From positions 3,604 through 67,603 of the forward strand of contig CAVWYT010000012.1 of the NCBI GenBank assembly GCA_963759295.1: 64,000 nt of DNA. Direction: 5' to 3'. Shown here piece after piece: positions 25,418 to 36,749 of this stretch. The translations under genes and the position numbers were made by a program. Each line of letters starts with the position of its first letter. The stretch's first letter is position 1. The notes under the pieces were generated by a model. The model was not told where the DNA came from, ran no database searches, and saw only the letters and a list, made by a program, of their open reading frames with translations. The DNA comes from an uncultured Solirubrobacterales bacterium. GTDB lineage: Bacteria; Actinomycetota; Thermoleophilia; Solirubrobacterales; 70-9.

Positions 25418-28400
25418 TCAGCCGAACAGTTCGGCCGGGGCCGCCTCGAGCGCGGCCTCGGTCGCCCGACGGCCCGCTTCGACCGCCGCGTCCATCTGGT
25501 GGAACTCGAGCAGGCCGACCCCGGGGGCGCGGGGCTCGATGACGAGGTTCGCGTACTTGCGCGAGGCCTGCGCGGTGTTGCTGCTCGCCAGCAAAAAGAG
25601 CCGGCCCAGGGTCTCGCCGAGCCCCGGCGGTGGGCGATCGGTGAAGCCGGCTGCGGCGACCTCGGGCAGGCCGTTTCCAGCCTCCTGATGCGTCCGAGAC
25701 GATGATCCGTTGCTGGCGCGGATGTCGACCGCGATCACGGGCCCCTCGCCGAGCTCCGCCATCGTCGCGACGGGGAGGTTGTCGATCAGGCCGCCGTCGA
25801 CGAGCAGCCGCTCGCCGCGGATCTGCGGCGGGGCAAGGACGGGCAGGCACATGCTGGTGCCGATGTGGTCCACCAGCCGCCCGTTGCGGTGGACGACCAA
25901 CTCGGAGCGGCGCAGATCGGCGCTCGCGCAAAAGAAGGAGCGCTCGATCTCCTCGAAGCGCACCTCCCCGAACACGCCCTGCAGCATCTCGAGGAAGCGC
26001 TGACCCCTGATCATCGCGTGGCGAGGGAACCGCCAGTCGTTGAGCGGGTAGCGGCGGACCCAGCTCTCATACGCGATCGCGTCGATCTCCTCGGGGTCGA
26101 GCCCCGCCGCGTAAAGACCGCCGAGGAATGCCCCCATGCTCACGCCCGCGACCCGATCGACGACGATCCCCGCCGCCTCGAGCTGCTCGATCACGCCGAT
26201 GTGCGCGAACGCCCTGGCGCCGCCGCCGGAGAGCACCAGCCCGACGGAACGACCGCAGAGCCGACGAGCCAACCTGCCGACGTCGGCGGCGCGGTCCTCG
26301 ACACGGAGCAGGTGATGCTCGATCGGCTCGAGCATCTCGACCAGCTCCGCAAGCGCCCCTGAGCCCTGCTGGACGTCGCAGGCCACGAGATCGGCCCCGT
26401 GCAGCGCCGGATCGATCTCACCGTCGATCGCGTCGCCCGGTCCCGCGATCACGAGGATGCGGTCCGCCTGCTGGACGCAGAACCGCCGCCAGTCCGGCGA
26501 GGAATCGGGCCCCACCGGCAGGACGACGACACCTGCCTCGGCCTCGGCACGATCGAGATGCGGTCCGAACGCCGCCACGTCCCCGTCCCCGCCGCGAGTG
26601 TGGGCCTCGGGCAGGCGGGCGGCGGGCGCGAACTGGCGCAGGGATTCGGTCAGGTCGGCGGCCAGTTCGTCGGCCCGATCGGCGTCGCCCAGGGCGAGGA
26701 GCGTGATCGTTGCGGCCACCGGCCGGGCTGCGAACTTGACGCCCTCCGACTCCGCCAGTTGCCGCGCGAGCTGCAGGTTCAAGGCCCGCGAGAGCTCGAG
26801 CGAGGAATCGAGCAGGCGCTGGAAGCTCCGCTCTCCGATCTCGACCAGCTCACAGTCACGCGCTGCCCTGATCGAGGCGGCACGCGGCTCACCGGTGATC
26901 AGCGCCAGCTCGCCGAGTGCCGCGCCCCTGCCCAGCTCGCGAAACACCTCTCCGTCCTGATCGACGATCTCGATTCGGCCCGCCCGGACCACGTACATGG
27001 CGTCGCCCGCATCACCCTCCTTGAACAGCCAGTCGCCGGCCGGGAGCCGGATCTCGTTCGCCGTTGCGGCGACCTCCTCCAGCAGGCTCGAGTCCAGGGT
27101 CGAAAACAGTGGCACCCGGGCGAGGAAGTCGGCCAGCGACTCGTGGATCGGGCCGGCGTCGCCCGGCTGCACGGACAGCGGCAGCTCGGCGACCGGGGCG
27201 GCCTTGGCCTGGAAGCTGCTCACGTGGGGTGGGGCGAGCGCGACCCGCATCGCGTCGGCCAGCGCCGGTACCCGCGCCGCCGCCTGCGCCGGACTGACCC
27301 CGCCCATGGCGAGGCCGCCGATGCCGGCGGTGAGCAGGCAACCGGCGGCGAACAGCCAGGCGTCGTCGAACGCCGCCACGGCGTCCTCGAGGGTCTCGGG
27401 AGTGCCGAGGATGGCGACCACCATCGCGACGCCGACCGCAGCTCCAACCTGACGTACGACCGAGGAAACGCCGGTCGCGGTCGCGAAGCTCTCACCCGGC
27501 GCCGAAGCGACGGCCGCGGAGCTCACGTTCGGGAAGGTGATCCCGGCGCCGAGGCCGAGGAGGATCACCCCCGGCAGCCATTCCGCCAGGTACGCGGGCT
27601 CGGGCCCGACCCTCAGAACCAGCCACATCACCCCGCCGGCCCAGATCAGTCCCCCGATCGCGACCACCGGCCGGTAGCCGATCCGCAGCGCGAGCCGGCT
27701 GAAAGGCCCGGCGATCGCGGCGGCGACGAACGGGCCGGGCGTGATCGCGAGGCCGGCCTGCAGGACCGTGTAATCCCACACGCCGGTGAGGAAGAGGACG
27801 TTGAGCAGCGTGTAGCCGAAGAAGCCGGCGGCGCCGATCACGCTGACTGCGTTGGCGACCGAGAAGGTCCGGTTGGCGAACAGCCGAGTGTCAACGACCG
27901 GCGCCCGGTGCCGTCGCGACCTGGCGACGAACGCCGCCAGGCAGAGCGCCGACACGCTGACGCAGGCGATCACGCCGGCGGAGGTCCAACCCCAGTCGCC
28001 GCCGTTGACGATCGCGACCACGAGGATCGCCACGGCGAACGCAAACAGCGCCGCGCCGGGCATATCCGGAAGCCGCCTGCGTCCCGCCTCGCGGCTCTCG
28101 ACCAGCTCCCGAGAGGCGAGCACGTACGCCGCGGCTCCGATCGGCAGGTTGATCACGAACACGAGCCGCCAGTCGGCGAGCGCGATCAAGAAACCACCGA
28201 TCGCGGGGCCGAGCCCGGCCGCGAGGGCGCCGATCGCGGAGATCAGCGCCACCGCGTGCGAGCGCTGCTCGACCTCGAAGCCGTGCAGCACCAGCGCCAG
28301 CCCGGCGGGGACCATCGCGGCGGCCCCGAGTGCCTGGATGACGCGGAAGGCGACCAGCACCTCGACCGACCAGGAGGTCGCGCACAGCAGGGACCCGAGG

Positions 28401-28702
28401 CCGAAGACCGCGAGTCCAACCAAAAAGACCCGCTTGCGGCCGATGACGTCGGCGAGTCGCCCGAACGGAAGCAGGAACGCCGCGAAGACGACGTTGTAGC
28501 CGTTGAGAATCCAGGAGAGCCCGCCGATGCTGGTTTCCGGGAACGACCGGGCAATGTCGGGAAAGGCGATATTGACGATCGTCGCGTCGAGAAATGCGAG
28601 AAAGAAACCGAGCGACGCGATCCCCAGGACCGATCGCGATGACGGCACCGAGCGCGCGCGCAGGCTGCGACGCTCGATTGCGGATCCCCCGGTTTGGGTC
28701 AT
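25418..28702 (-). CDS. Tri-domain protein: 14-TM MFS (DHA2-like) transporter + cyclic-nucleotide-binding domain + patatin-like phospholipase (NTE-like)
   Basis: The 1094-aa ORF is intact. The MFS N-half reads LDATIVNIAFPDIA...GRLADVIGRKRVF. The cNMP domain reads FKEGDAGDAMYVVRAGRIEIV...GRGAALGELALITGEPRAASIRA. The patatin domain has GLVLSGGGARAFAHIG (oxyanion), GVSMGA (GxSxG) and LVDGGLIDNLPV (catalytic Asp). Confidence 0.9.
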   Translation of the reverse strand: MTQTGGSAIERRSLRARSVPSSRSVLGIASLGFFLAFLDATIVNIAFPDIARSFPETSIGGLSWILNGYNVVFAAFLLPFGRLADVIGRKRVFLVGLAVFGLGSLLCATSWSVEVLVAFRVIQALGAAAMVPAGLALVLHGFEVEQRSHAVALISAIGALAAGLGPAIGGFLIALADWRLVFVINLPIGAAAYVLASRELVESREAGRRRLPDMPGAALFAFAVAILVVAIVNGGDWGWTSAGVIACVSVSALCLAAFVARSRRHRAPVVDTRLFANRTFSVANAVSVIGAAGFFGYTLLNVLFLTGVWDYTVLQAGLAITPGPFVAAAIAGPFSRLALRIGYRPVVAIGGLIWAGGVMWLVLRVGPEPAYLAEWLPGVILLGLGAGITFPNVSSAAVASAPGESFATATGVSSVVRQVGAAVGVAMVVAILGTPETLEDAVAAFDDAWLFAAGCLLTAGIGGLAMGGVSPAQAAARVPALADAMRVALAPPHVSSFQAKAAPVAELPLSVQPGDAGPIHESLADFLARVPLFSTLDSSLLEEVAATANEIRLPAGDWLFKEGDAGDAMYVVRAGRIEIVDQDGEVFRELGRGAALGELALITGEPRAASIRAARDCELVEIGERSFQRLLDSSLELSRALNLQLARQLAESEGVKFAARPVAATITLLALGDADRADELAADLTESLRQFAPAARLPEAHTRGGDGDVAAFGPHLDRAEAEAGVVVLPVGPDSSPDWRRFCVQQADRILVIAGPGDAIDGEIDPALHGADLVACDVQQGSGALAELVEMLEPIEHHLLRVEDRAADVGRLARRLCGRSVGLVLSGGGARAFAHIGVIEQLEAAGIVVDRVAGVSMGAFLGGLYAAGLDPEEIDAIAYESWVRRYPLNDWRFPRHAMIRGQRFLEMLQGVFGEVRFEEIERSFFCASADLRRSELVVHRNGRLVDHIGTSMCLPVLAPPQIRGERLLVDGGLIDNLPVATMAELGEGPVIAVDIRASNGSSSRTHQEAGNGLPEVAAAGFTDRPPPGLGETLGRLFLLASSNTAQASRKYANLVIEPRAPGVGLLEFHQMDAAVEAGRRATEAALEAAPAELFG

Positions 28703-28891
28703 GACTGCAACAAAGGGATGTGGCTCAGGCTACGTGCTACGTGAACGCCAGCCACGCTACCGCGTCGCGTCCCGTCGACCAATACGTGACACGAAAGATG
28801 CGACCAGGGCCGGAGGGATCCAGCCTCTTCCCCATGCCCGGAGCGCACGGCACCGCGCGCCCGGGCGATCGCGACCCTCTCGGCAGTCGGC

Positions 28892-29071
28892 CTACTTGCG
28901 CAGCGCGTCTCGCAGGTGTCCGCGCTTCTTTCGCGCCGACCCCTTCGCCTGGCGACCCTGACCCTTCGCCTTGCTTCGCTCACGGCCGGACAGGGCTCCG
29001 GCCGCCTCCTTGACCCGGCCGCGCACCTTGTCGAAGGTGCCTCCGGCCTTGTCGCGTCCTCTGCTTCTCAT
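28892..29071 (-). CDS. CsbD-like small general-stress protein
   Basis: Not in the track because it is only 59 aa. The product is MRSRGRDKAGGTFDKVRGRVKEAAGALSGRERSKAKGQGRQAKGSARKKRGHLRDALRK*. GGAAGGAG lies upstream. The pattern G..dk.kGk.KE..G......l...G...q..G matches the CsbD family. Confidence 0.65.
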   Translation of the reverse strand: MRSRGRDKAGGTFDKVRGRVKEAAGALSGRERSKAKGQGRQAKGSARKKRGHLRDALRK

Positions 29072-29164
29072 CGTCGACTCCTTCCCGCCGCGGGCGAGGT
29101 GTCACTCGCCCACGGGACTCGTATTAGCGATGTCGAGGGCGCCGCGTGCGGCGCCGATGCGCGG

Positions 29165-30115
29165 TCAGGAGGCGGTCTTTGCCTTCGAGCCGTTCTCGGC
29201 ACGGGAGCCATTGCGGCTCGTCCGACGCGAGGAGCCGCGCGACTTGGAGCTCGATCCCGAGCTGCGCGCCTTCTTCACCTTGCCCTCCTCGATCGTGCCG
29301 CGCCACCCCTCCTCGGGCTCGTGATCGAGCTCGACATAGGCCTTGAACCGGTGCAGGTCACCGCGCACCGCGCGCTTGACGAACCGCATTCCCCGGCTCG
29401 CCTTGTCGATGATGTTCGACGGCTGCACGTCGAGCGTCAGGTCGACCCGGGTCAGGTTCTCCGACAGCTGATGGAAGGTGACCAGACCGGTGTGGGCATA
29501 GCCCTCGGTCACGTTCCACTCGATGCGCTCGTCGGGCCGTTGCTCGAAGATGTCGGCCTCGAAGCGCTTGTTGATGCCCCAGATCTTCGCGTGGAAGGAG
29601 ACCGTCGCATCGTCGACCTGCTCGGCGCTCTCGATCCGGTGCATGAACTCCGGCCAATCCTCGAACCGGGTCCAATGGTCGTAGACGACCGATACCGGAA
29701 CCGCGACGTCGATCGCCTGCTGGATCGGCATCCGGCGCCCGCTTCCGTGACCGGGCGCGGCGCGGCCCTCGGAGTCGTCCTCGTCGCCGGCGTCCTTGCT
29801 GCCGCCGCCGAACAGTCCCTTCAGGCGTCCGCCGCCGAGCAGCTCGCTCGGTGAGTCCGGCGTCGCCTGCTTGACCGTGTCCTGAACCTGTGACTTGGCC
29901 TTCTCCTTGGCCTGGTCGCCGAGCTCGGAGACCTTGCCGGACACCTTCGGAAGCCCGACTTTCGCCAGCCCCTGCGCCGCCAGCGGCACCGCCGCCAGCG
30001 CCACTCCCGCCACCGCGAGCCGCTTCGGGTCGCTGACCACGCTGTCGCTGCTCGCGACGCGCTGCGCCGCCTGCTTGGCGCCCTTGCCCACCTTCTCGAT
30101 TCCCGTGCCTGCCAT
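29165..30115 (-). CDS. SRPBCC (polyketide cyclase/dehydrase-like, START-fold) protein with disordered N-region and Ser/Arg/Lys-rich C-tail
   Basis: The 316-aa product has the core IQQAIDVAVPVSVVYDHWTRFEDWPEFMHRIESAEQVDDATVSFHAKIWGINKRFEADIFEQRPDERIEWNVTEGYAHTGLVTFHQLSENLTRVDLTLDV. The tail is KKARSSGSSSKSRGSSRRTSRNGSRAENGSKAKTAS. Confidence 0.8.
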   Translation of the reverse strand: MAGTGIEKVGKGAKQAAQRVASSDSVVSDPKRLAVAGVALAAVPLAAQGLAKVGLPKVSGKVSELGDQAKEKAKSQVQDTVKQATPDSPSELLGGGRLKGLFGGGSKDAGDEDDSEGRAAPGHGSGRRMPIQQAIDVAVPVSVVYDHWTRFEDWPEFMHRIESAEQVDDATVSFHAKIWGINKRFEADIFEQRPDERIEWNVTEGYAHTGLVTFHQLSENLTRVDLTLDVQPSNIIDKASRGMRFVKRAVRGDLHRFKAYVELDHEPEEGWRGTIEEGKVKKARSSGSSSKSRGSSRRTSRNGSRAENGSKAKTAS

Positions 30116-30135
30116 CGCTCTCCTCAGTTCATCGT

Positions 30136-30309
30136 TTAGTTGCCGTCGGCCTCACCGCCGCCGCGAAGCAGCCGGAAGACCACGATCCCGGTCACCGCGC
30201 CCGCCACCGTCGCCCCCGCGGCCGCGCCAACCGGCCCGGGCCGGTCGCCGTGCATACGCTGGGCAACCGGACGGACAACGGCGTCGCGGGCCTTTTCCTT
30301 GACACTCAA
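30136..30309 (-). CDS. Small single-TM protein (57 aa), hypothetical; missed by the ORF track
   Basis: A TTG start overlaps the putative upstream stop (cTTGAg). The product is (M)SVKEKARDAVVRPVAQRMHGDRPGPVGAAAGATVAGAVTGIVVFRLLRGGGEADGN*. GC3 is much higher in this frame than in the overlapping tail of track ORF 30152-30607. GAGGAG for the next gene follows. Confidence 0.4.
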   Translation of the reverse strand: MSVKEKARDAVVRPVAQRMHGDRPGPVGAAAGATVAGAVTGIVVFRLLRGGGEADGN

Positions 30310-30607
30310 GCTTCGTCCTCGTCCTCGTCTCGTCGTCCAAGGCCTCGGCGAGCTCGGGCGACACCTCGGTCCGCACGGCGGCCTCGGCGCGCCAGCGAAT
30401 CTTCGCGTCGCGGTAGGTGACGCCAGGCTCGATCTCGTCGGGCAGGTTCTCCCGCTCGGTGTGGGAGCCGGAGCGCCGCTCGTCGGAGCCCGGGAAGCTC
30501 ACCTCGGTCTCGGGCACCTCGTCGAAGCGGATCGCCTTCATCTTCGCCACCGCGCCGATTTCGACATCGGCAAGCGGCTCCTTGTCCGTGCGCTTCTTGG
30601 CGCTCAC
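30306..30607 (-). CDS. Acidic ~100-aa protein, unknown function (apparent 1-nt frameshift 8 codons before the natural stop)
   Basis: A GTG start overlaps the upstream stop (GTGA). The product is SAKKRTDKEPLADVEIGAVAKMKAIRFDEVPETEVSFPGSDERRSGSHTERENLPDEIEPGVTYRDAKIRWRAEAAVRTEVSPELAEALDDE. After gacgacgag the track frame switches to rare AGG codons and low GC3. Restoring one G gives ...DDEDEDEDEA* with the stop at 30306-30308. Confidence 0.5.
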
Positions 30608-32220
30608 GATCGCTGCGCCTTCTGCACGTCTCGCAGGGTCACGCGACCGTCGGCTCCCGTGCCCTCGATCTGCTCGACGTCCAGCCCGGCATCGGCCGCC
30701 TCGCGCAGCGCGGCCGCGGTCGCGTTGTGCTTGTCGGCCCCGTTGTGCTTGTCGGCCCGCTTCTCGCGGCGGCGCTCGCCCATCTCCATCACCTTGCGCG
30801 TCGCGGCCAGGCTGAGGTCCTTCGCCTCGTCGGACGCGGCGCTGCCGAGCTGCTTGGCGGCGACCTTGACCGCTTCCTTGGCCAGTTGGGGAGCACTGAT
30901 TCCGGGCAGCCCGCCTCCGTCGCCTCCGCCGTTGCTCTCGGAGCCGCCGTCGCCGCTGCCGCCGCCGCCGCCGAGCAGGCCTCCTGCCGCCCCACCGACA
31001 ACCCCTCCGGCCGCGTCGCCGACGCCCTGGCCGACGCCGCCGACCGCCTGGCCGGCCGCGTCGCCGACGCCCTGGCCGAGATCGCCTACGCCCTGGCCGA
31101 CGCCGCCGACCGCCTGGCCGGCGCCCTCCCCGAGCCCGCCGACCGCCTCACCGGCACCCTCACCGACCTGGCCCACCGTCTGCCCGAGATTGCCGACCGT
31201 CTGGTCGAGATTCCCGACCGCCTGCCCGGCGCCCTCGCCGACGCCCTCGACCGCCTGGCCGGCTCCCTGGCCGACGCCCTCGACCGCCTGGCCGGCTCCC
31301 TGGCCGACGCCCTCGACGGCCTGGCCGGCTCCCTGGCCGACGCCCTCGACGGCCTGTCCGGCGCCCTCGCCGACGCCCTCGACCGCCTGGCCGGCTCCCT
31401 GGCCGACGCCCTCGACGGCCTCTCCGGCGCCTTCGCCGACGCTCTCGACGGCCTGGCCGGCGCCCTGGCCGACGCCCTCGACCGCCTGGCCGGCGCCCTC
31501 GCCGACCTCGCCGACCGCCTGCTTGGCACCCTCGCCCACGTGCTCGGCTCCCTCGCCGGTCTCATCGATGGCCTCGCCGGCGCCCGAGCCGATGTGTTCG
31601 ACGGCGGCGCTGAGGTTCTCGACCAGCTCCGGGTTGCGGTCGACCGCGGTCAGGACCCGGTCGATCATCGCCGCAACGTGGTCGAGCCGCACCTTGGCGA
31701 GTGCTTGCGCCTCGACGCCCTCGATGTCGATCCGCAGCTTGCCGAGGTGGACGTCGACCCCGACCGTGAGGTTCAGGAGGTCGAGCACCTTCGCCTTGAC
31801 CGCGACGTGCGCGTCCAGCTGGTCGAGCTCGAGATGGATCCGGTCGACCTTGACGACCGGCACCGCGAGCAGGAGATCGGGATTGGTGATCTCGCCGTCG
31901 CCGGTCGCGTACGAGCGGTACTCGCGTTCGGCGCGGGTCAACTGGCCCTCGACGTTTTGCGCGAACCGGTACTTCTCGGTCTTCTGGGACGCCGAGCGGC
32001 CGTCGCCGTCGGAGCTCTTGGAGCTCTTCGCCGGAGAGCTCTTGGTCTGGCGCGCGAGCGCTCGCTTGGTCCTGGCGGGCGCGCTGCTCTTCTTCGAGGA
32101 GGCGCCGTGATCGTTCTTTGCGGAGGTGCGGGTGCGCCGACGCGCCGGGGTCGACGTGCTCTGACCGTTCTTCGACCCCCGTGAACGTGTGCTTGATCGG
32201 CTGTTCGACTTTCGCGCCAT
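30604..32220 (-). CDS. Repeat protein C: basic Ser/Arg/Lys-rich N-tail + conserved unknown domain + ~200 aa of 11-residue G/Q/A/V/E repeats + Gly-rich linker + PSBD(E3-binding)-like C-terminal domain
   Basis: The 538-aa ORF is intact. Residues 116-203 are paralogous to residues 46-133 of the next gene. The repeats read VGEGAGQAVEGVGQGAGQAVEG.... The C-terminus is TAAALREAADAGLDVEQIEGTGADGRVTLRDVQKAQ. Confidence 0.75.
   Translation of the reverse strand: MARKSNSRSSTRSRGSKNGQSTSTPARRRTRTSAKNDHGASSKKSSAPARTKRALARQTKSSPAKSSKSSDGDGRSASQKTEKYRFAQNVEGQLTRAEREYRSYATGDGEITNPDLLLAVPVVKVDRIHLELDQLDAHVAVKAKVLDLLNLTVGVDVHLGKLRIDIEGVEAQALAKVRLDHVAAMIDRVLTAVDRNPELVENLSAAVEHIGSGAGEAIDETGEGAEHVGEGAKQAVGEVGEGAGQAVEGVGQGAGQAVESVGEGAGEAVEGVGQGAGQAVEGVGEGAGQAVEGVGQGAGQAVEGVGQGAGQAVEGVGQGAGQAVEGVGEGAGQAVGNLDQTVGNLGQTVGQVGEGAGEAVGGLGEGAGQAVGGVGQGVGDLGQGVGDAAGQAVGGVGQGVGDAAGGVVGGAAGGLLGGGGGSGDGGSESNGGGDGGGLPGISAPQLAKEAVKVAAKQLGSAASDEAKDLSLAATRKVMEMGERRREKRADKHNGADKHNATAAALREAADAGLDVEQIEGTGADGRVTLRDVQKAQRS
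30990..31590 (-). repeat. 33-bp (11-codon) tandem repeat array inside repeat protein C
   Basis: The core holds eight near-identical units gccgacgccctcgaccgcctggccggctccctg at 31237-31500, each 33 nt with 0-5 substitutions. More degenerate 33-nt units flank the core on both sides. Confidence 0.85.
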
Positions 32221-32229
32221 GCCCTCTCC

Positions 32230-33162
32230 TCAGCCTTTGCCCTGCTGGCCGCCGCCCGATCCCTGCTGGGCCGGTTGGCGCTGCTGTCCCTGCTGGGCCG
32301 GTTGGCCCTGTTGGCCCTGCTGGCCCTGCTGAGCCGGTTGGCCCTGCTGGCCGGCCAGGTTGCCGAGGCCTTGCCCGGCCCCCTGCCCCACCTGGCCCAG
32401 GCCCTGGCCAACTCCCTGCCCGGCCTGTCCGACGCCCTGTCCGACGCCTTGCCCGGCCTCGCCGAGGCCCTGGCCGACCCCTTGCCCGGCCTCGCCGAGG
32501 CCCTGGCCGGCGCCCTCGCCGAGCTTGCCGACGCCCTGCCCGACCCCCTGCCCGGCCTCGCCGAGGCCCTGGCCTGCGCCCTCGCCGAGCTTGCCGACGC
32601 CCTTGCCGGCACCCTGGCCGACGTCCGAAAGCGCCTGGTTGGCGCCCTTGCCGATCTGCGGAAGCGCCATCTCGGCGCCCTCGCCGACGTCCTCGGCGAC
32701 ATCTCCGGCGGATCCGAGCAGCTCCCCGGTTCCGGCGCCTGTGTCCTCGACGGCTCGTCCGATTCCCGCCAGCAGCTCCGGGTTTCGATCGAGCGTCAGG
32801 GCGACCCGATCGACGATCGCTTGCACGGTGTCGAGGCGCGCATTGAGAAGGGCCTGGGCCTCCACTCCCTCGATCTCGAGCAGGACCTTCTCGAGCCGCA
32901 CGTCGGCGCCGACGCTGAGCTGGGCCAGCCTGCGTACCTCGGCGGCAACCGCCACCTGAGCGCGCAGGTCGTCGACCTCGACCTCGAGCTTGTCGACCTT
33001 GACCACCGGTACGTCGACGATCACATCCGAGCCCGGTTCGATCTTGCTCGGATCGACGATCGCGTAGTCGTCGTACTTCGGCTGCGACTTCGCCTGCTTA
33101 CGCTGCGCCTCCCGGCGCTTTGCGTTGCGTTCCCGGCGCTTGTCTGTGTTCTCGTCGGCCAC
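32230..33162 (-). CDS. Repeat protein B: basic N-tail + the same conserved unknown domain + G/Q/A/V/L 11-residue repeats ending in a Gln/Gly-rich tail
   Basis: The 310-aa ORF is intact. The shared domain reads VPVVKVDKLEVEVDDLRAQVAVAAEVRRLAQLSVGADVRLEKVLLEIEGVEAQALLNARLDTVQAIVDRVALTLDRNPELL. The repeats read GEGAGQGLGEAGQGVGQGVGKL..., then QQGQPAQQGQQGQQGQPAQQGQQ. Confidence 0.75.
   Translation of the reverse strand: MADENTDKRRERNAKRREAQRKQAKSQPKYDDYAIVDPSKIEPGSDVIVDVPVVKVDKLEVEVDDLRAQVAVAAEVRRLAQLSVGADVRLEKVLLEIEGVEAQALLNARLDTVQAIVDRVALTLDRNPELLAGIGRAVEDTGAGTGELLGSAGDVAEDVGEGAEMALPQIGKGANQALSDVGQGAGKGVGKLGEGAGQGLGEAGQGVGQGVGKLGEGAGQGLGEAGQGVGQGLGEAGQGVGQGVGQAGQGVGQGLGQVGQGAGQGLGNLAGQQGQPAQQGQQGQQGQPAQQGQQRQPAQQGSGGGQQGKG
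32233..32742 (-). repeat. 33/66-bp periodic coding repeats inside repeat protein B
   Basis: The segment ttgcccggcctcgccgaggccctggcc recurs at about 32449, 32482 and 32548. The segment gcgccctcgccgagcttgccgacgccct recurs at about 32509 and 32575 (66-bp spacing). CAG/CCA-type Gln-Pro repeats lie at 32240-32340. Confidence 0.75.
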
Positions 33163-33168
33163 GCTCGA

Positions 33169-33798
33169 TCAGCCTCGCTTCGAGTTGTTGATCGCGTCGC
33201 TCGCCTTCTGGACCTGGGAGGCGACCTGACCGACCTGCTCGCTTCGCTGCGCGACCTCGCCCGCGGCGTGGCCGATCGCCTTCAACGCCGAGTCGGGCTT
33301 CGGCATGCTGACGTTCGGCGCCTTGATCTTCGGCATGCTGACCTTCGGCGCCTTGACCTTGGGCATCTTCACGTTCGGCTTTCCGATCCGCCCGAGGACT
33401 CCCTTGCGCCGCTGGCTGCGGCTCAGTGCCAGTCCGCCCGCGAGCCCGACCAGCGCGGCCCCGCCGGCTGCGGCGGGCGCCTTCGCCTTCTCGGCGAACG
33501 CAGCGAGCTTCGACTTCTCGGCGCCGTTGCCCTTCGCCGCCGCCCCGAGCTGCCTTCGCCGCCGCGCCCGAGCTTGACTGCTTGGAGGCTCGCTGCCCCG
33601 CGCTCGGGGAGCGACGCTGACTCGACGAGCGCTGAGTCGACGAACGCTTGCGCTCGAGGCGCTGCTGCTGCTGGTGCTTCGTGAGCCGCCCGAGGACGTG
33701 CGCTTGCTTTGCGCGCTCGCACCGTTGCCGCTCTTCGAACCTGCCGACCGGCTCTTGGAACTCTTCGACCGCGTGCTGCCCGTCTTCGTCTGGGCCAT
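33169..33798 (-). CDS. Protein A: ~100-aa Ser/Arg/Lys-rich disordered N-region + one TM helix + MPKVKAP-type short repeats + helical tail
   Basis: The 209-aa product starts MAQTKTGSTRSKSSKSRSAGSKSGNGASAQSKRTSSGGSRSTSSSS. The TM helix is AAAGGAALVGLAGGLAL. The short repeats read GKPNVKMPKVKAPKVSMPKIKAPNVSMPKP. The stop lies 6 nt before the start of gene B. Confidence 0.6.
   Translation of the reverse strand: MAQTKTGSTRSKSSKSRSAGSKSGNGASAQSKRTSSGGSRSTSSSSASSASVRRLSARRVSVAPRARGSEPPSSQARARRRRQLGAAAKGNGAEKSKLAAFAEKAKAPAAAGGAALVGLAGGLALSRSQRRKGVLGRIGKPNVKMPKVKAPKVSMPKIKAPNVSMPKPDSALKAIGHAAGEVAQRSEQVGQVASQVQKASDAINNSKRG
33301..33379 (-). repeat. 30-bp tandem repeat (2.6 copies) encoding the MPKVKAPKVS motif
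   Basis: The three units are cggcatgctgacgttcggcgccttgatctt, cggcatgctgaccttcggcgccttgacctt and gggcatcttcacgttcggc. Confidence 0.8.
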
Positions 33799-33932
33799 CA
33801 GAAGGCCTCCTTGCTCGCTTCGGGTGCCCGGGAAACCTCCCGGCCCTCGCGCTTCGTTCTACCCCCGGCCAGGCCCGTCAATCTCGGATCGACGCCAAAC
33901 GCCCCGCTAAGGCCACAAATCATTCGGACGGT

Positions 33933-33959
33933 GGGGGCCCGGTCATCCGGTCGGCCCCC
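33933..33959 (-). terminator. Putative terminator hairpin between the ArsM-like gene and the repeat-protein operon
   Basis: The hairpin gggggcccgg-tcat-ccgg(tc)ggccccc has a 10-11 bp stem with a 2-nt bulge. It lies about 105 nt downstream of the stop at 34067 and about 135 nt upstream of the start at 33798. Confidence 0.4.
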
Positions 33960-34066
33960 CGGCCTACTGGTGCGCCCGGTCGCGGCGGTCGCGATCTTGC
34001 ACCGCCCGCCTTCGTCAGCTCGAGCTACGCCACCGAGGCCGGCGCGATCGCGATGCGGCGAGGTCG

Positions 34067-34897
34067 CTACTCGCGCACGGCGAGGATCGAGATGCTCTCG
34101 ATCTCGTAGGTGCTACAGGCGTCGAGCGCGCGATCGGAGACGAACTCGTACGGGTTCGCCTGCGTGCGGCGCACCTGGAACCCCGCCGCTTCGACCGTCT
34201 CGAGGTAGCTGCGGCGCGGGATTGCTCCGGCGACGCACGCCGCCCAGAGGTCGACGTTGCGACGCGTCGTCTCGCGCAGCGGCCGGCCGCTGACGATGTC
34301 GGAGATCGCGAGCCGTCCCCCCGGCCGCAGCACCCTGGCCGCCTCCTCGAAGACGCGATCCTTGCGCAGCGAGAGGTTGATGACGCCGTTCGAGATCACG
34401 CAATCGAAGCTCTGCGCGTCGAGCGGCAGTTCCTCGATCGTCGACCGATGAAACTCGACCTGCTCGAACCCGTGGCGATCTCGCAGCCGCTCGGCCTTGG
34501 CGACCTGCGCTTCGGTGAAGTCGACGCCCGCGACCATGCCGTCCGTCCCGACGGCGAGCGCCGCGTAGAAGACATCGGTCCCGGAACCCGAGCCGAGGTC
34601 GAGGACCCGCTCGCCCGGTCGCAGCGCGGCGAGCTCGAAGTGGTGCCCGACGCCCGCGAACGAGGCGAGGGCATCTGCCGGTAGGTCGTCGAGCCGTTCG
34701 GGGTCGTAGCCGAGCCGCTCGGCGAGACCGCGGCCGGTCTCGAAGTGCAGTTCGCCGCTCTCCTCGCGGGCGACGTGCCCGTACATCTCCTTGACCGCTG
34801 ACTCGAGCCGTTGGCCGTCGACCAGCGATGTGGCGTCCGCCTGCGGCAGCTGCCCGGCGACGGCCATCTCCTGCTCGCGGGCGCTCGTCTCGCTCAA
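34067..34897 (-). CDS. ArsM-like class I SAM-dependent methyltransferase
   Basis: The 276-aa product reads VKEMYGHVAREE...FETGRGLAERLGY...VLDLGSGSGTDVFYAA...VAGVDFT..Q...A...VISNGVINLS.DK..VF.EA.RVLRPGGRLAISDIV. This is the pattern of arsenite / generic small-molecule methyltransferases. Confidence 0.75.
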   Translation of the reverse strand: MSETSAREQEMAVAGQLPQADATSLVDGQRLESAVKEMYGHVAREESGELHFETGRGLAERLGYDPERLDDLPADALASFAGVGHHFELAALRPGERVLDLGSGSGTDVFYAALAVGTDGMVAGVDFTEAQVAKAERLRDRHGFEQVEFHRSTIEELPLDAQSFDCVISNGVINLSLRKDRVFEEAARVLRPGGRLAISDIVSGRPLRETTRRNVDLWAACVAGAIPRRSYLETVEAAGFQVRRTQANPYEFVSDRALDACSTYEIESISILAVRE

Positions 34898-34952
34898 TCT
34901 CGGCCTCGCTCAGCTCGATCCCGGACCCCGGACAAGCGGCCGCCGGGCGAGC

Positions 34953-35297
34953 TCATGCCCGACGACGACCGAGCCCGGCGTCCAGCCGCTGCGCCTCGGT
35001 CTGGCACCACTCGGCCAACGCGCGCAGCCACTCGCTCTCGGCTCGAGTGCGGACGGCGACGTAGCCGGTGAACTCCCCCGCAAGCTCCTCGGCCTCGCTG
35101 ACGCTGAGCGTGCGCGTTCGTCCCTCGAGCTCGTCGTGGCGTCGCCACTCGACCCCGCCACCGTCACCCGGCTCGAGCACCAACCGGGTGCCGTCGCTGA
35201 GCACGAGCTCGCGCGGGGCGTCGCCCCGCAGCCAGGCGCCGCGGGCGCGATCGTTGTCGATGCCCCTCGCCGTCGCGGTTCGGGTCCCTGCTTCCAT
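34953..35297 (-). CDS. Hypothetical protein (114 aa)
   Basis: The internal start MEAGTRTATARGIDNDRARGAWLRGDAPRELVLSDGTRLVLEPGDGGGVEWRRHDELEGR... has AGGAGG upstream. GC3 is high and no family was recognised. Confidence 0.45.
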   Translation of the reverse strand: MEAGTRTATARGIDNDRARGAWLRGDAPRELVLSDGTRLVLEPGDGGGVEWRRHDELEGRTRTLSVSEAEELAGEFTGYVAVRTRAESEWLRALAEWCQTEAQRLDAGLGRRRA

Positions 35298-35672: not shown

Positions 35673-36749
35673 CTACTTGGTCCCGACGACCATCGAGTCG
35701 GGCCCGACGAGATGTTCGACGCGGCTTTCGCGGAAGCCCGTCTCCTGCATCCAGGCCCGGCAGTCGGCGCCCGTGTAGTCGAAGCCCCCGGGCGTCTCGA
35801 TCAGCATGTTCAGGCTCATCAGCAGGCCGAAGGCGTTGGCGCGCCGCTCGTCGTCGATGATCGCCTCGTAGACGATCAATGCGCCGCCCTCGGGCAGGGC
35901 GTCGTAGGCCTTTTTAAGGAGCAGCCGCTTCTCGTCGAGGTCGAAGTCATGCAGGATGTGGCCCATCACCAGCACATCCGCCTTCGGCAGCGGGTCTGAG
36001 AAGAAGTCCCCGGCGGTGAAGCTGAGGCGTTCGCCGAGCCCGAAGCGGGCGACGTTCGCCTCGAAGAGCGGCTCGACCGGGGGTAGGTCGAATCCGCCGC
36101 CGGTGATGTGCTCGTGCGCGAGCGCGATCTGAACCGGCACGGCGCCCTCGGCGCAGCCGACGTCGATCACGCTGGCGTGGTCGCGCCAGGGAAACCTGGC
36201 GGCGATCGCCTGCGCCGCGCCTGTGCTCACGGCGCTCATCGCGCGCGCGAACTGGGCGAGCCGCGCCGGATCGGCGTAGAGGGCCTCGAAGAAGCTCCCG
36301 CCGCCCTTTGCCTCGTTCTGCGGGGTTCCGGTGCGAAGCCCCTCCGTCAGCGATCCCCAAAAACCATAGAGGCGGGCGTTCGCCATCTCCAGCATGCCGC
36401 CGATGTACGAGGGCTTGGCCCGATCGAGAAACAGCTCGGTGGCCGGGGTGTTGGCATAGCGGCCGTCATCGCGCTCGAGCATGCCCAGCGCGACTAACGC
36501 GTCGAAGAAGTCCGTCGCGCTTCGCGGGTGCAGGCCCAGGCGCTCGCGCAGCGTCTCGCTGTCGAGCGCGCCGGCGTCCGCCAGCTCTGAGAAGACCCCG
36601 AGCTCGACGGCGCTCAGAAGCGCCTTCGAGCCCCAGAACCCGAACCCCAGCTGCATGATCGCATCGGGCGTCGCCTGCGGCGTGCGCTCGACGTCGGTCT
36701 GTGGTCCGTTCATCGACGCAGTCCTTTCGAAGAAACCAAGCCCGGCCAA
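35673..36749 (-). CDS. Family-2 O-methyltransferase (dimerisation + Methyltransf_2 domains)
   Basis: The sequence reads [26 protein letters not shown]...[16 protein letters not shown]...GGFDLPPV...[28 protein letters not shown]....[18 protein letters not shown]. The true start may be the MNGPQ codon at 36713. Confidence 0.85.

Follow-up and report, generated by a model that had tools for sequence, protein, structure and literature searches.

The subject of this study is a cluster of seven genes, here called A to G, on the minus strand of a 64,000-nucleotide (nt) stretch of DNA from a Solirubrobacterales soil actinobacterium (contig CAVWYT010000012.1 of assembly GCA_963759295.1, positions 3,604 to 67,603; genome GC content 70%). 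We refer to this whole stretch as the window and give all coordinates in its numbering, in which the cluster spans 33798-28892. Comparison with related genomes supports the view that it is a conserved functional module across Thermoleophilia. At the level of the system, it is known in kind, as a SigB-type stress cluster with CsbD, SRPBCC, and LEA-like repeat proteins. What is new, as judged from the sequences, is the core of B, C, and D: two uncharacterized protein families without relatives in Pfam or the PDB (one combining a hairpin domain with hendecad repeats, the other represented by D), an unusual PSBD architecture, and fusions of the two families. We tentatively favor the reading that the cluster encodes a general-stress-controlled, non-enzymatic structural or protective assembly on the cytoplasmic side. 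In dry and arid soils, Thermoleophilia (Solirubrobacterales and relatives) rank among the most common actinobacteria; they are almost entirely uncultured, and their survival of drought is little understood. The cluster with its stress-promoter signature belongs to the blocks of "hypothetical" genes that they conserve most consistently. We found no description of the cluster proteins in the literature, and an exact-match look-up of the window's F and D in the contig index returned nothing on record.

Conservation and linkage of the cluster

Relatives were collected by scanning one genome per GTDB species, which gave 355, and the best 80 of these 355, all of them Thermoleophilia (Solirubrobacterales, Thermoleophilaceae, Conexibacter, and Paraconexibacteraceae), were used for the analysis of gene neighborhoods. 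Linkage was counted at the 51 Thermoleophilia loci at which the gene for the hairpin domain is flanked by at least 5 kb on either side, using jackhmmer searches for each family on six-frame open reading frames (ORFs); these counts replaced an all-versus-all clustering of neighboring ORFs that was partly confounded by low complexity (its component 0 merged A, B, C, D, and F). The neighbors of the hairpin gene were D at 50/51 loci, a PSBD-bearing C at 49/51, F at 39/51, A and E at 38/51 each, and G at 23/51. D adjoins C in 50/51 loci, and the position of G is variable. The preliminary description of this DNA, made from the sequence without database searches, had proposed to look for co-occurrence of the seven genes in other genomes, and this is what we see: the B-C-D core is present at nearly all Thermoleophilia loci and A, E, and F at about three quarters of them. 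It had further reasoned that a gene order conserved nowhere would mean accidental juxtaposition. The order does vary between lineages (FEBCDG at 7 loci, A'BCDEGF at 5, FABCDG and AEFBCD at 3 each, and ABCDEF(G) in the window), but the gene neighborhood is kept; on three long contigs (L001-L003), B, PSBD-bearing C, and D stand together, and genes like A, E, SRPBCC, and CsbD lie close by in differing order. Since proximity has been kept despite rearrangement, we argue for a functional link between these genes. An eighth small family, "H" (76-78 amino acids (aa) with one Gly-rich hydrophobic segment, as at 6976-7206 of L003), occurs at 16/51 loci and is none of the window's seven genes.

Beyond these neighborhoods, the core families are large. 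A search with the hairpin domain of B retrieved hundreds of hypothetical proteins of around 200 aa from Solirubrobacterales metagenomes, none of them with a Pfam domain, and an exhaustive hidden Markov model search of 1.84 billion representative proteins recovered at least 1,359 clusters at 50% identity for the hairpin-repeat family (E<=1e-3). With a Streptomyces query, more than 2,600 homologues were found in Streptomyces, Actinomadura, Nocardiopsis, and Spirillospora, almost all of them annotated as "hypothetical protein", and the families of D and of B/C count hundreds to thousands of members. In three proteins, P0352 (from a metagenome-assembled genome of Nonomuraea, L084 5299-6273), P0359, and P0375, the hairpin domain, the 11-residue repeats, and the D domain are fused in one polypeptide, and such fusions were seen in Nonomuraea and two other lineages. 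By the Rosetta stone argument, these fusions indicate that D works with the hairpin proteins. D and the hairpin domain are not homologous to each other as far as profiles can tell, since their profile-profile comparison gave a probability of 0.5% and we rejected this relationship. At L084, the next gene after the fusion codes for a conserved Gly/Ala-rich hydrophobic protein of 150 aa.

These data also bear on the simplest objection, namely that unrelated small genes lie side by side by accident or that some of the ORFs are spurious products of GC-rich DNA. High GC content does yield long spurious ORFs, several of which overlap the cluster on the plus strand, and the repeat tracts are of low complexity. 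Against this stand the high GC content at third codon positions (GC3) that marks all seven genes as coding, the co-localization of homologues across at least 50 genomes, and families of hundreds to thousands of members. We consider this explanation hardly credible, and chance juxtaposition is effectively refuted by synteny and homologue counts. The plus-strand ORFs in question (656, 485, 469, and 242 aa at 30140-32846) run antisense to the repeats of B and C, are rich in Pro, Ala, and Arg, and are read as GC-rich repeat artifacts rather than genes.

Domains and repeats of the cluster proteins

B (32230-33162, 310 aa) and C (30604-32220, 538 aa) had been recognized as paralogues from the window sequence, and they indeed share 51% identity over 266 aa (E=2e-68). 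B consists of a short basic N-terminus, the hairpin domain plus helix at about aa 38-150 (33051-32713), Gly-rich 11-residue repeats at about aa 137-279 (32754-32326), and a Gln/Gly tail. C begins with a basic Ser/Arg/Lys N-terminus (aa 1-80) and an EKYRFAQNV motif, continues with the hairpin domain (about aa 113-205, 31884-31606), 11-residue repeats (about aa 206-400, 31605-31021), and a Gly-rich linker, and ends in a PSBD (aa 503-533, 30714-30622). No signal peptide is evident in the sequence of either protein. The 11-residue repeats, likewise seen at the outset, appear in Tandem Repeats Finder as a 33-nt period (in C, 9.9 copies over 31215-31540; in B, 7.8 copies over 32362-32620), alongside 99-nt super-repeats, and extend over about 195 aa in C and 130 aa in B. 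Their hydrophobicity has its power peak at 3.67 residues, corresponding to the 11/3 period typical of amphipathic hendecad helices.

The domain shared by B and C was modeled with AlphaFold2 from an alignment of 42 sequences. The model predicts two strands of about 30 residues (query residues 22-52 and 56-85) that form one long hairpin followed by helices, with a mean confidence (pLDDT) of 60, values of 66-80 in the domain, and values of about 40-47 in the repeats. Along the strands, the alignment-averaged hydrophobicity alternates with a period of about 2 and thereby gives the hairpin one apolar and one charged face. An amphipathic hairpin of this kind and 11/3 repeats would be the sort of elements that build assemblies. 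The domain had been called novel, and no counterpart came to light in Pfam, NCBIfam, or the PDB: B as a whole has no Pfam or NCBIfam match, the hairpin domain has no entry in any of the 3 databases, its profile found no match among PDB sequences, and C searched against the PDB likewise found none except for its PSBD tail. A structure-model search had also been suggested; Foldseek returned no match with E<0.4 for the hairpin model against the PDB and BFVD or for the D model against the PDB. Scans of the cluster products with PADLOC and PHROGs gave only weak ZorA and tape-measure matches, located in the low-complexity repeat region.

The top non-significant Foldseek neighbors of the hairpin were pore and ring hairpins. 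The long, two-stranded amphipathic hairpins of aerolysin, lysenin, the anthrax-PA pore, and the FliF ring collar, which are functional only as oligomers, are indeed similar in kind, but these matches have E>=1 (best E=1.0) and probabilities <=0.16, and B and C are presumably cytoplasmic proteins without a signal peptide or pre-pore domains. We therefore did not retain B and C as beta-barrel pore formers of the aerolysin/lysenin type, given the non-significant fold match and the lack of a secreted pre-pore architecture.

A second comparison is with the gas-vesicle proteins GvpA and GvpC, which share with B and C an amphipathic beta-hairpin flanked by helix and repeats in multiples of 33 residues; they differ in that no sequence or profile similarity exists, that the predicted B/C hairpin is about 3 times longer, and that B and C carry both elements in one polypeptide. 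From this likeness one can derive the view that B and C coat a hydrophobic inclusion (for example, a lipid droplet, a wax or polyhydroxyalkanoate (PHA) granule, or a gas-filled body): the apolar faces of the hairpins would tile its surface as in GvpA, the 11-/33-residue repeats would lie on top as in GvpC, apolipoproteins, or CsmC, and the SRPBCC protein would handle lipid cargo. The strictly amphipathic pattern of the hairpin, the 33-nt repeat period with its 99-nt super-repeats, recurrent sub-threshold matches to Apolipoprotein and Chlorosome_CsmC, and the linkage of the SRPBCC gene at 39/51 loci (and perhaps its adjacency in Streptomyces) all speak for such a coat. Nevertheless, we regard it as rather unlikely: B, C, and their homologues have no Gas_vesicle Pfam match at E<=1, hhalign against GvpA (with GvpA sequences entered by hand) gave a probability of 0.3%, the predicted strands are about 3 times as long as those of GvpA, the Apolipoprotein match (PF01442) reaches 25.7 bits against a cut-off of 90, and no gvp accessory, WS/DGAT, or PHA genes recur in the neighborhoods (Pfam annotation of L001-L003 and recurrent neighbor clusters). 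In particular, gvpF, gvpL, gvpN, gvpJ, and gvpK, which are found at gas-vesicle loci, are absent from the neighborhood here, and direct homology of the hairpin domain to GvpA was rejected on the same hhalign value and the lack of a PF00741 match.

A different lead comes from the C-terminus of C. The preliminary description had found nothing recognizable in A to E, and this stands for A, B, D, and E, which have no Pfam or NCBIfam match, but not for C, which ends in a genuine E3_binding/PSBD domain: PF02817 scores 29.7 bits against a cut-off of 23.7, the last 35 residues or so match 30 PSBD sequences of the PDB (best E=1.4e-3), and the signature GTGxxGR[IV]xxxDV is contained in it. In this the tail resembles the PSBD of E2 acyltransferases, while the remainder of C does not resemble these enzymes: neither a lipoyl (Biotin_lipoyl) nor a catalytic (2-oxoacid_dh) domain is matched at E<=1, and NCBIfam E2 models reach 15-25 bits against cut-offs above 400, in the PSBD region only. 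Since the lipoyl and catalytic domains are missing, we conclude from its sequence that C is not an E2 enzyme; it would be a case of a PSBD in use outside such an enzyme, in an unusual combination with a repeat-rich structural protein. The PSBD could mean that C is a docking scaffold that binds E3 (dihydrolipoamide dehydrogenase) or E1 and sequesters or relocates this enzyme under stress as a metabolic switch. In favor of this idea, the domain is bona fide, above its cut-off, matched by 30 solved PSBDs, and retained at 49/51 loci as well as in some homologues of the Streptomyces group. On the other side of the balance, C lacks the lipoyl and catalytic domains of an E2, the 80 neighborhoods show no recurrent E1 or E3 gene, the PSBD is dispensable for core function because B and the fused hairpin-D proteins do without it, and its partner might just as well be D or a different protein of the cluster. 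We therefore rate the enzyme scaffold as improbable.

Gene D is the one case in which the window does not contain the gene that had been described. D had been given as an acidic protein encoded at 30607-30306 and ending in a TTGA overlap with E, but this span of 302 nt is not divisible by 3 and holds no open frame. From the GTG at 30607, the first stop comes at 30152, and the resulting frame (30152-30607) encodes 151 aa (pI 9.5; on record as P0121) and runs through all of E in a different frame. The codon-position GC content of the added tail (GC1/2/3 of 0.75/0.83/0.61) is a non-coding pattern, while that of the E frame on the same DNA is coding-like (0.81/0.55/0.83). Instead, an acidic 100-aa form is encoded by contig L086 (P0122, 98% identical, ending in ...ALDDDDEDEDEA), where the D stop is the TGA of a TTGA overlap with E; at the next-closest loci (L004, L035, and L030), it lies in a TGATG or ATGA overlap with the E start codon. 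The DNA alignment of the window with L086 (98% identity) differs in length by exactly one base, which is lacking in the window between 30330 and 30329, within the GACGACGA(C)GACGAG run of GAC/GAG repeats. This frameshift sits eight codons ahead of the natural stop and leaves the conserved 92-residue core (30607-30329) intact. Because L086 carries the 100-aa form with one more base, the D of the preliminary description is best taken as the ancestral gene rather than the window sequence, with its stop at the TGA 30308-30306 inside the TTGA overlap with E. The closest relatives are all metagenome-assembled genomes, and the frameshift could be either a genuine mutation or a mistake of the assembly. 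A programmed frameshift at the D/E junction was rejected, since there is no slippery heptamer and the 98%-identical contig is simply one base longer. AlphaFold2 predicts three long strands and a C-terminal helix for the 100-aa form (pLDDT 74). D has no Pfam or NCBIfam match (all seven products were scanned), no PDB match by profile search, and no significant Foldseek neighbor in the PDB.

The remaining products are smaller or more familiar. The N-terminal half of A (33169-33798, 209 aa, pI 12) is rich in Ser, Lys, and Arg; the protein further contains an Ala/Gly-rich hydrophobic segment at aa 107-125, MPKxK-type 10-residue repeats (seen in Tandem Repeats Finder as a 30-nt repeat at 33298-33379), and a helical C-terminal region. 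It matches nothing in Pfam, NCBIfam, or PADLOC and has no meaningful PHROG match. E (30136-30309, 57 aa, with a TTG start) has a Gly/Ala-rich hydrophobic segment at aa 27-45 and no Pfam or NCBIfam match, and its homologues (MSVKDKAQG...YRLLR) were found in L002, L003, L004, and elsewhere. A and E had been labeled single-transmembrane proteins, a label that our analysis did not confirm: the segments are Ala/Gly-rich and reach Kyte-Doolittle values of only 1.6-1.9, and F has a similar one. The assignments of F to SRPBCC and G to CsbD proved right, both being above the Pfam cut-offs. F (29165-30115, 316 aa) consists of a hydrophobic segment (aa 33-51), a Gly-rich linker, the SRPBCC domain (aa 131-262, 29725-29330; PF03364 with 57.1 bits against a cut-off of 23.4, 2.8e-15, and PF10604 with 43.3 bits against 27.4, 5.7e-11), and a basic Ser/Arg/Lys C-terminal tail, and no close PDB sequence was found for it. 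G (28892-29071, 59 aa, pI 12) matches PF05532 CsbD over model positions 1-52 of 53 with 42.0 bits against a cut-off of 40 (E=8.6e-11). CsbD is a known family of the sigB regulon.

The basic character of several of these proteins allows the reading that A, C, F, and G use their Ser/Arg/Lys-rich tails to bind RNA, DNA, or polyphosphate and to drive a stress-granule-like phase separation. It would account for the pI of 12 of A and G, for the N-terminus of C and the C-terminus of F with their wealth of S, R, and K, and for the low-complexity tails being kept in homologues. Yet the scans of Pfam and NCBIfam detected no nucleic-acid-binding domain, conservation lies in the ordered hairpin and D domains and not in the tails, which vary greatly in length and sequence, and the N-termini are acidic in many homologues of the Streptomyces group, so that we view a condensate as more improbable still than the enzyme scaffold.

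Stress context and a possible protective assembly

The general-stress-controlled assembly that we favor takes its first element from the DNA upstream of A. A candidate promoter of the sigB/sigF type lies at 33859-33883 on the minus strand, about 85 nt upstream of the A start, with GATTGA as -35 element, a 13-nt spacer, and GGGTAG as -10 element. This motif fits a SigB-type pattern (GTTT/GNNT as -35, a spacer of 12-16 nt, and GGG(T/A)A as -10), and a GGGTA element is present at matching distance upstream of A in L005, L004, L002, and L051. Searched as the regular expression G.TT-N13-18-GGGTA, the motif occurs upstream of 51/183 candidate starts of cluster units, compared with 1.5% of random 250-mers from the same loci; when cluster units are set against other intergenic upstream regions of these loci, it is found at 28/149 and 32/667, respectively (odds ratio 4.6, p=1e-7). 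The starts with this motif include separate ones before F and before B where the gene order leaves a gap. It matches the published SigB consensus of Bacillus subtilis (GTTTAA-N12-14-GGG[A/T]A[A/T]) as well as that of the nine SigB homologues of Streptomyces coelicolor (PMC8346170). Genes for STAS, RsbW-like, SigB/F-like sigma, Usp, and MscS-type proteins recur within 10 kb of the cluster at 4-10 loci each. A stress role fits the sigB/sigF-type motif upstream of A and of the cluster units of relatives, and from this motif we infer that the cluster may depend on a SigB-type sigma factor and be induced under stress.

Among known systems, one comparison is with the small protective proteins that belong to the SigB general-stress response in Firmicutes and Actinobacteria (CsbD, YtxH, and GsiB-type): G is a CsbD member, the motif is of the SigB type, and the cluster products are, like those proteins, small, hydrophilic, and non-enzymatic, some with one hydrophobic anchor. 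In contrast, the B-C-D core has no counterpart in described regulons, and SigB dependence is deduced here from the motif. The repeats of B and C are comparable to group 3 LEA proteins, exchangeable apolipoproteins, and alpha-synuclein in their tandem 11-residue units, their periodicity of 3.67, and their stress-linked context, and the apolar positions 1, 2, 5, and 9 together with the E/Q positions resemble the LEA3 11-mer pattern. Unlike LEA3 proteins and apolipoproteins, they have Gly where those have Lys (about 4 Gly per 11 residues) and are joined to an ordered beta-hairpin domain that is missing in those families. Pfam searches gave no LEA family match at E<=1, and Apolipoprotein stayed far below its cut-off.

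From these elements, we propose the following tentative model. B and C would be the building blocks, whose long amphipathic beta-hairpins might pair or stack with each other and whose 11-residue repeats, amphipathic with the 11/3 period of group 3 LEA proteins and apolipoproteins, could cover a membrane or another hydrophobic surface. D would be a small beta-sheet protein and an obligate partner of B and C, while A, E, and F might supply Gly/Ala-rich hydrophobic anchors and F could add a predicted SRPBCC pocket for a hydrophobic, lipid-type ligand. The PSBD of C may dock a specific partner, either D or an E3- or E1-like enzyme, and G would act as a small stress protein of the CsbD type. Assembly, association with a surface or membrane, induction by stress, and the protective function are what we infer beyond the data. 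The earlier statement that the cluster does not look like an enzyme pathway is borne out, as the Pfam and NCBIfam scans detected no catalytic or enzyme domain in any product.

In support of this model we count the linkage of the genes, the fusions, the lack of a catalytic domain, the predicted structures with their periodicities, the sub-threshold Apolipoprotein and Chlorosome_CsmC matches, the promoter motif with its enrichment, the stress-gene neighbors, and the place of CsbD in the sigB regulon. Several observations weigh against it. AlphaFold2 confidence is moderate for B and C (mean 60) and low for the repeats, in which about 4 Gly per 11 residues are unfavorable for a helix, and A, E, and F have hydrophobic segments that are no more than borderline as membrane helices (Kyte-Doolittle 1.6-1.9). 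The promoter motif is found in only 19-28% of definable unit starts, its regular expression is loose, and neighboring stress genes inflate the background. The PSBD of C is left unexplained by a structural or "matrix" model. Finally, at one Streptomyces locus (L083, Streptomyces sp. NPDC048584) the hairpin-repeat gene is solitary but for a divergent SRPBCC-like gene. This neighbor (9180-9662 of L083) is a sub-threshold match (PF10604, E=6e-4) and hints that the link between hairpin and SRPBCC genes may reach beyond Thermoleophilia.

A more specific version of the protective assembly, which we think unlikely as it stands, would see B, C, and D as a new cytoplasmic lattice or coat in which hairpins of about 10 nm tile a membrane or hydrophobic inclusion, hendecads cover it, and the PSBD recruits a client enzyme. 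If this were true, it would be a new stress-induced bacterial ultrastructure that is widespread in Actinomycetota including Streptomyces. If the proteins assemble in the more general way proposed above, they would form a new class of protective or structural proteins. In either case, the family is tractable because its Streptomyces homologues are open to genetics.

Gene layout, RNA features, and flanking genes

Analysis of ORFs reproduced the coordinates first given for A, B, C, E, F, and G, and the junctions proved to be as described on the sequence: 6 nt separate A from B and 9 nt B from C, C and D overlap by 4 nt (GTGA), the 20-nt E-F spacer contains GAGGAG, and F and G are 93 nt apart. Shine-Dalgarno-like AGGAGG, GAGGAG, or AAGGAG sequences precede A, C, F, and G. 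The cluster had been read as a single operon, and this holds in part: the genes lie on the same strand, and the short or overlapping junctions from A through F, including the TTGA overlap of the ancestral D/E junction, are those of an operon. Nevertheless, A to G may not form one transcription unit, and co-transcription of G in particular is uncertain, because strong hairpins directly follow F and G is located elsewhere in many relatives.

The 93-nt F-G spacer (29072-29164) folds at a total of -45.9 kcal/mol into two hairpins, namely the GC-rich hairpin GGCGCCGCACGCGGCGCC at 29138-29155 directly after the F stop and a second one further in the spacer, and these may be an internal attenuator or terminator. 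A strong hairpin downstream of G (28836-28865, minus strand) is a candidate terminator (the fold of 28800-28895 reaches -54 kcal/mol). At the other end of the cluster, the hairpin at 33933-33959 that had been noted before folds at -23 kcal/mol on the minus strand; it lies between the upstream methyltransferase gene and the A promoter and probably terminates that upstream gene. The predicted 5' leader of A contains the stem-loop GGCCGGGAGGTTTCCCGGGC with GGAGG at 33826-33845 (minus strand, by RNA fold). The A leaders of L002, L051, L005, and L004 have hairpins at the matching place with differing stem sequences, RNAalifold found no consensus structure in seven divergent A leaders, and a scan of 28000-35000 with Rfam found no known RNA.

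Two methyltransferase genes lie upstream of A on the minus strand (34067-34897 and 35673-36749), one coding for a class-I S-adenosylmethionine-dependent enzyme (Methyltransf_31/25/11) and the other for an O-methyltransferase with a dimerization domain. The former had been called ArsM-like, an identity that is presumably doubtful since it has SNGVINL instead of a motif of the SNCVINL type. Directly downstream of G, the gene at 25418-28702 on the minus strand has a product of 1094 aa in which an MFS transporter, a cyclic-nucleotide-binding domain, and a patatin-like phospholipase are joined in an unusual arrangement, and MFS-like genes adjoin the cluster at about 12 loci.

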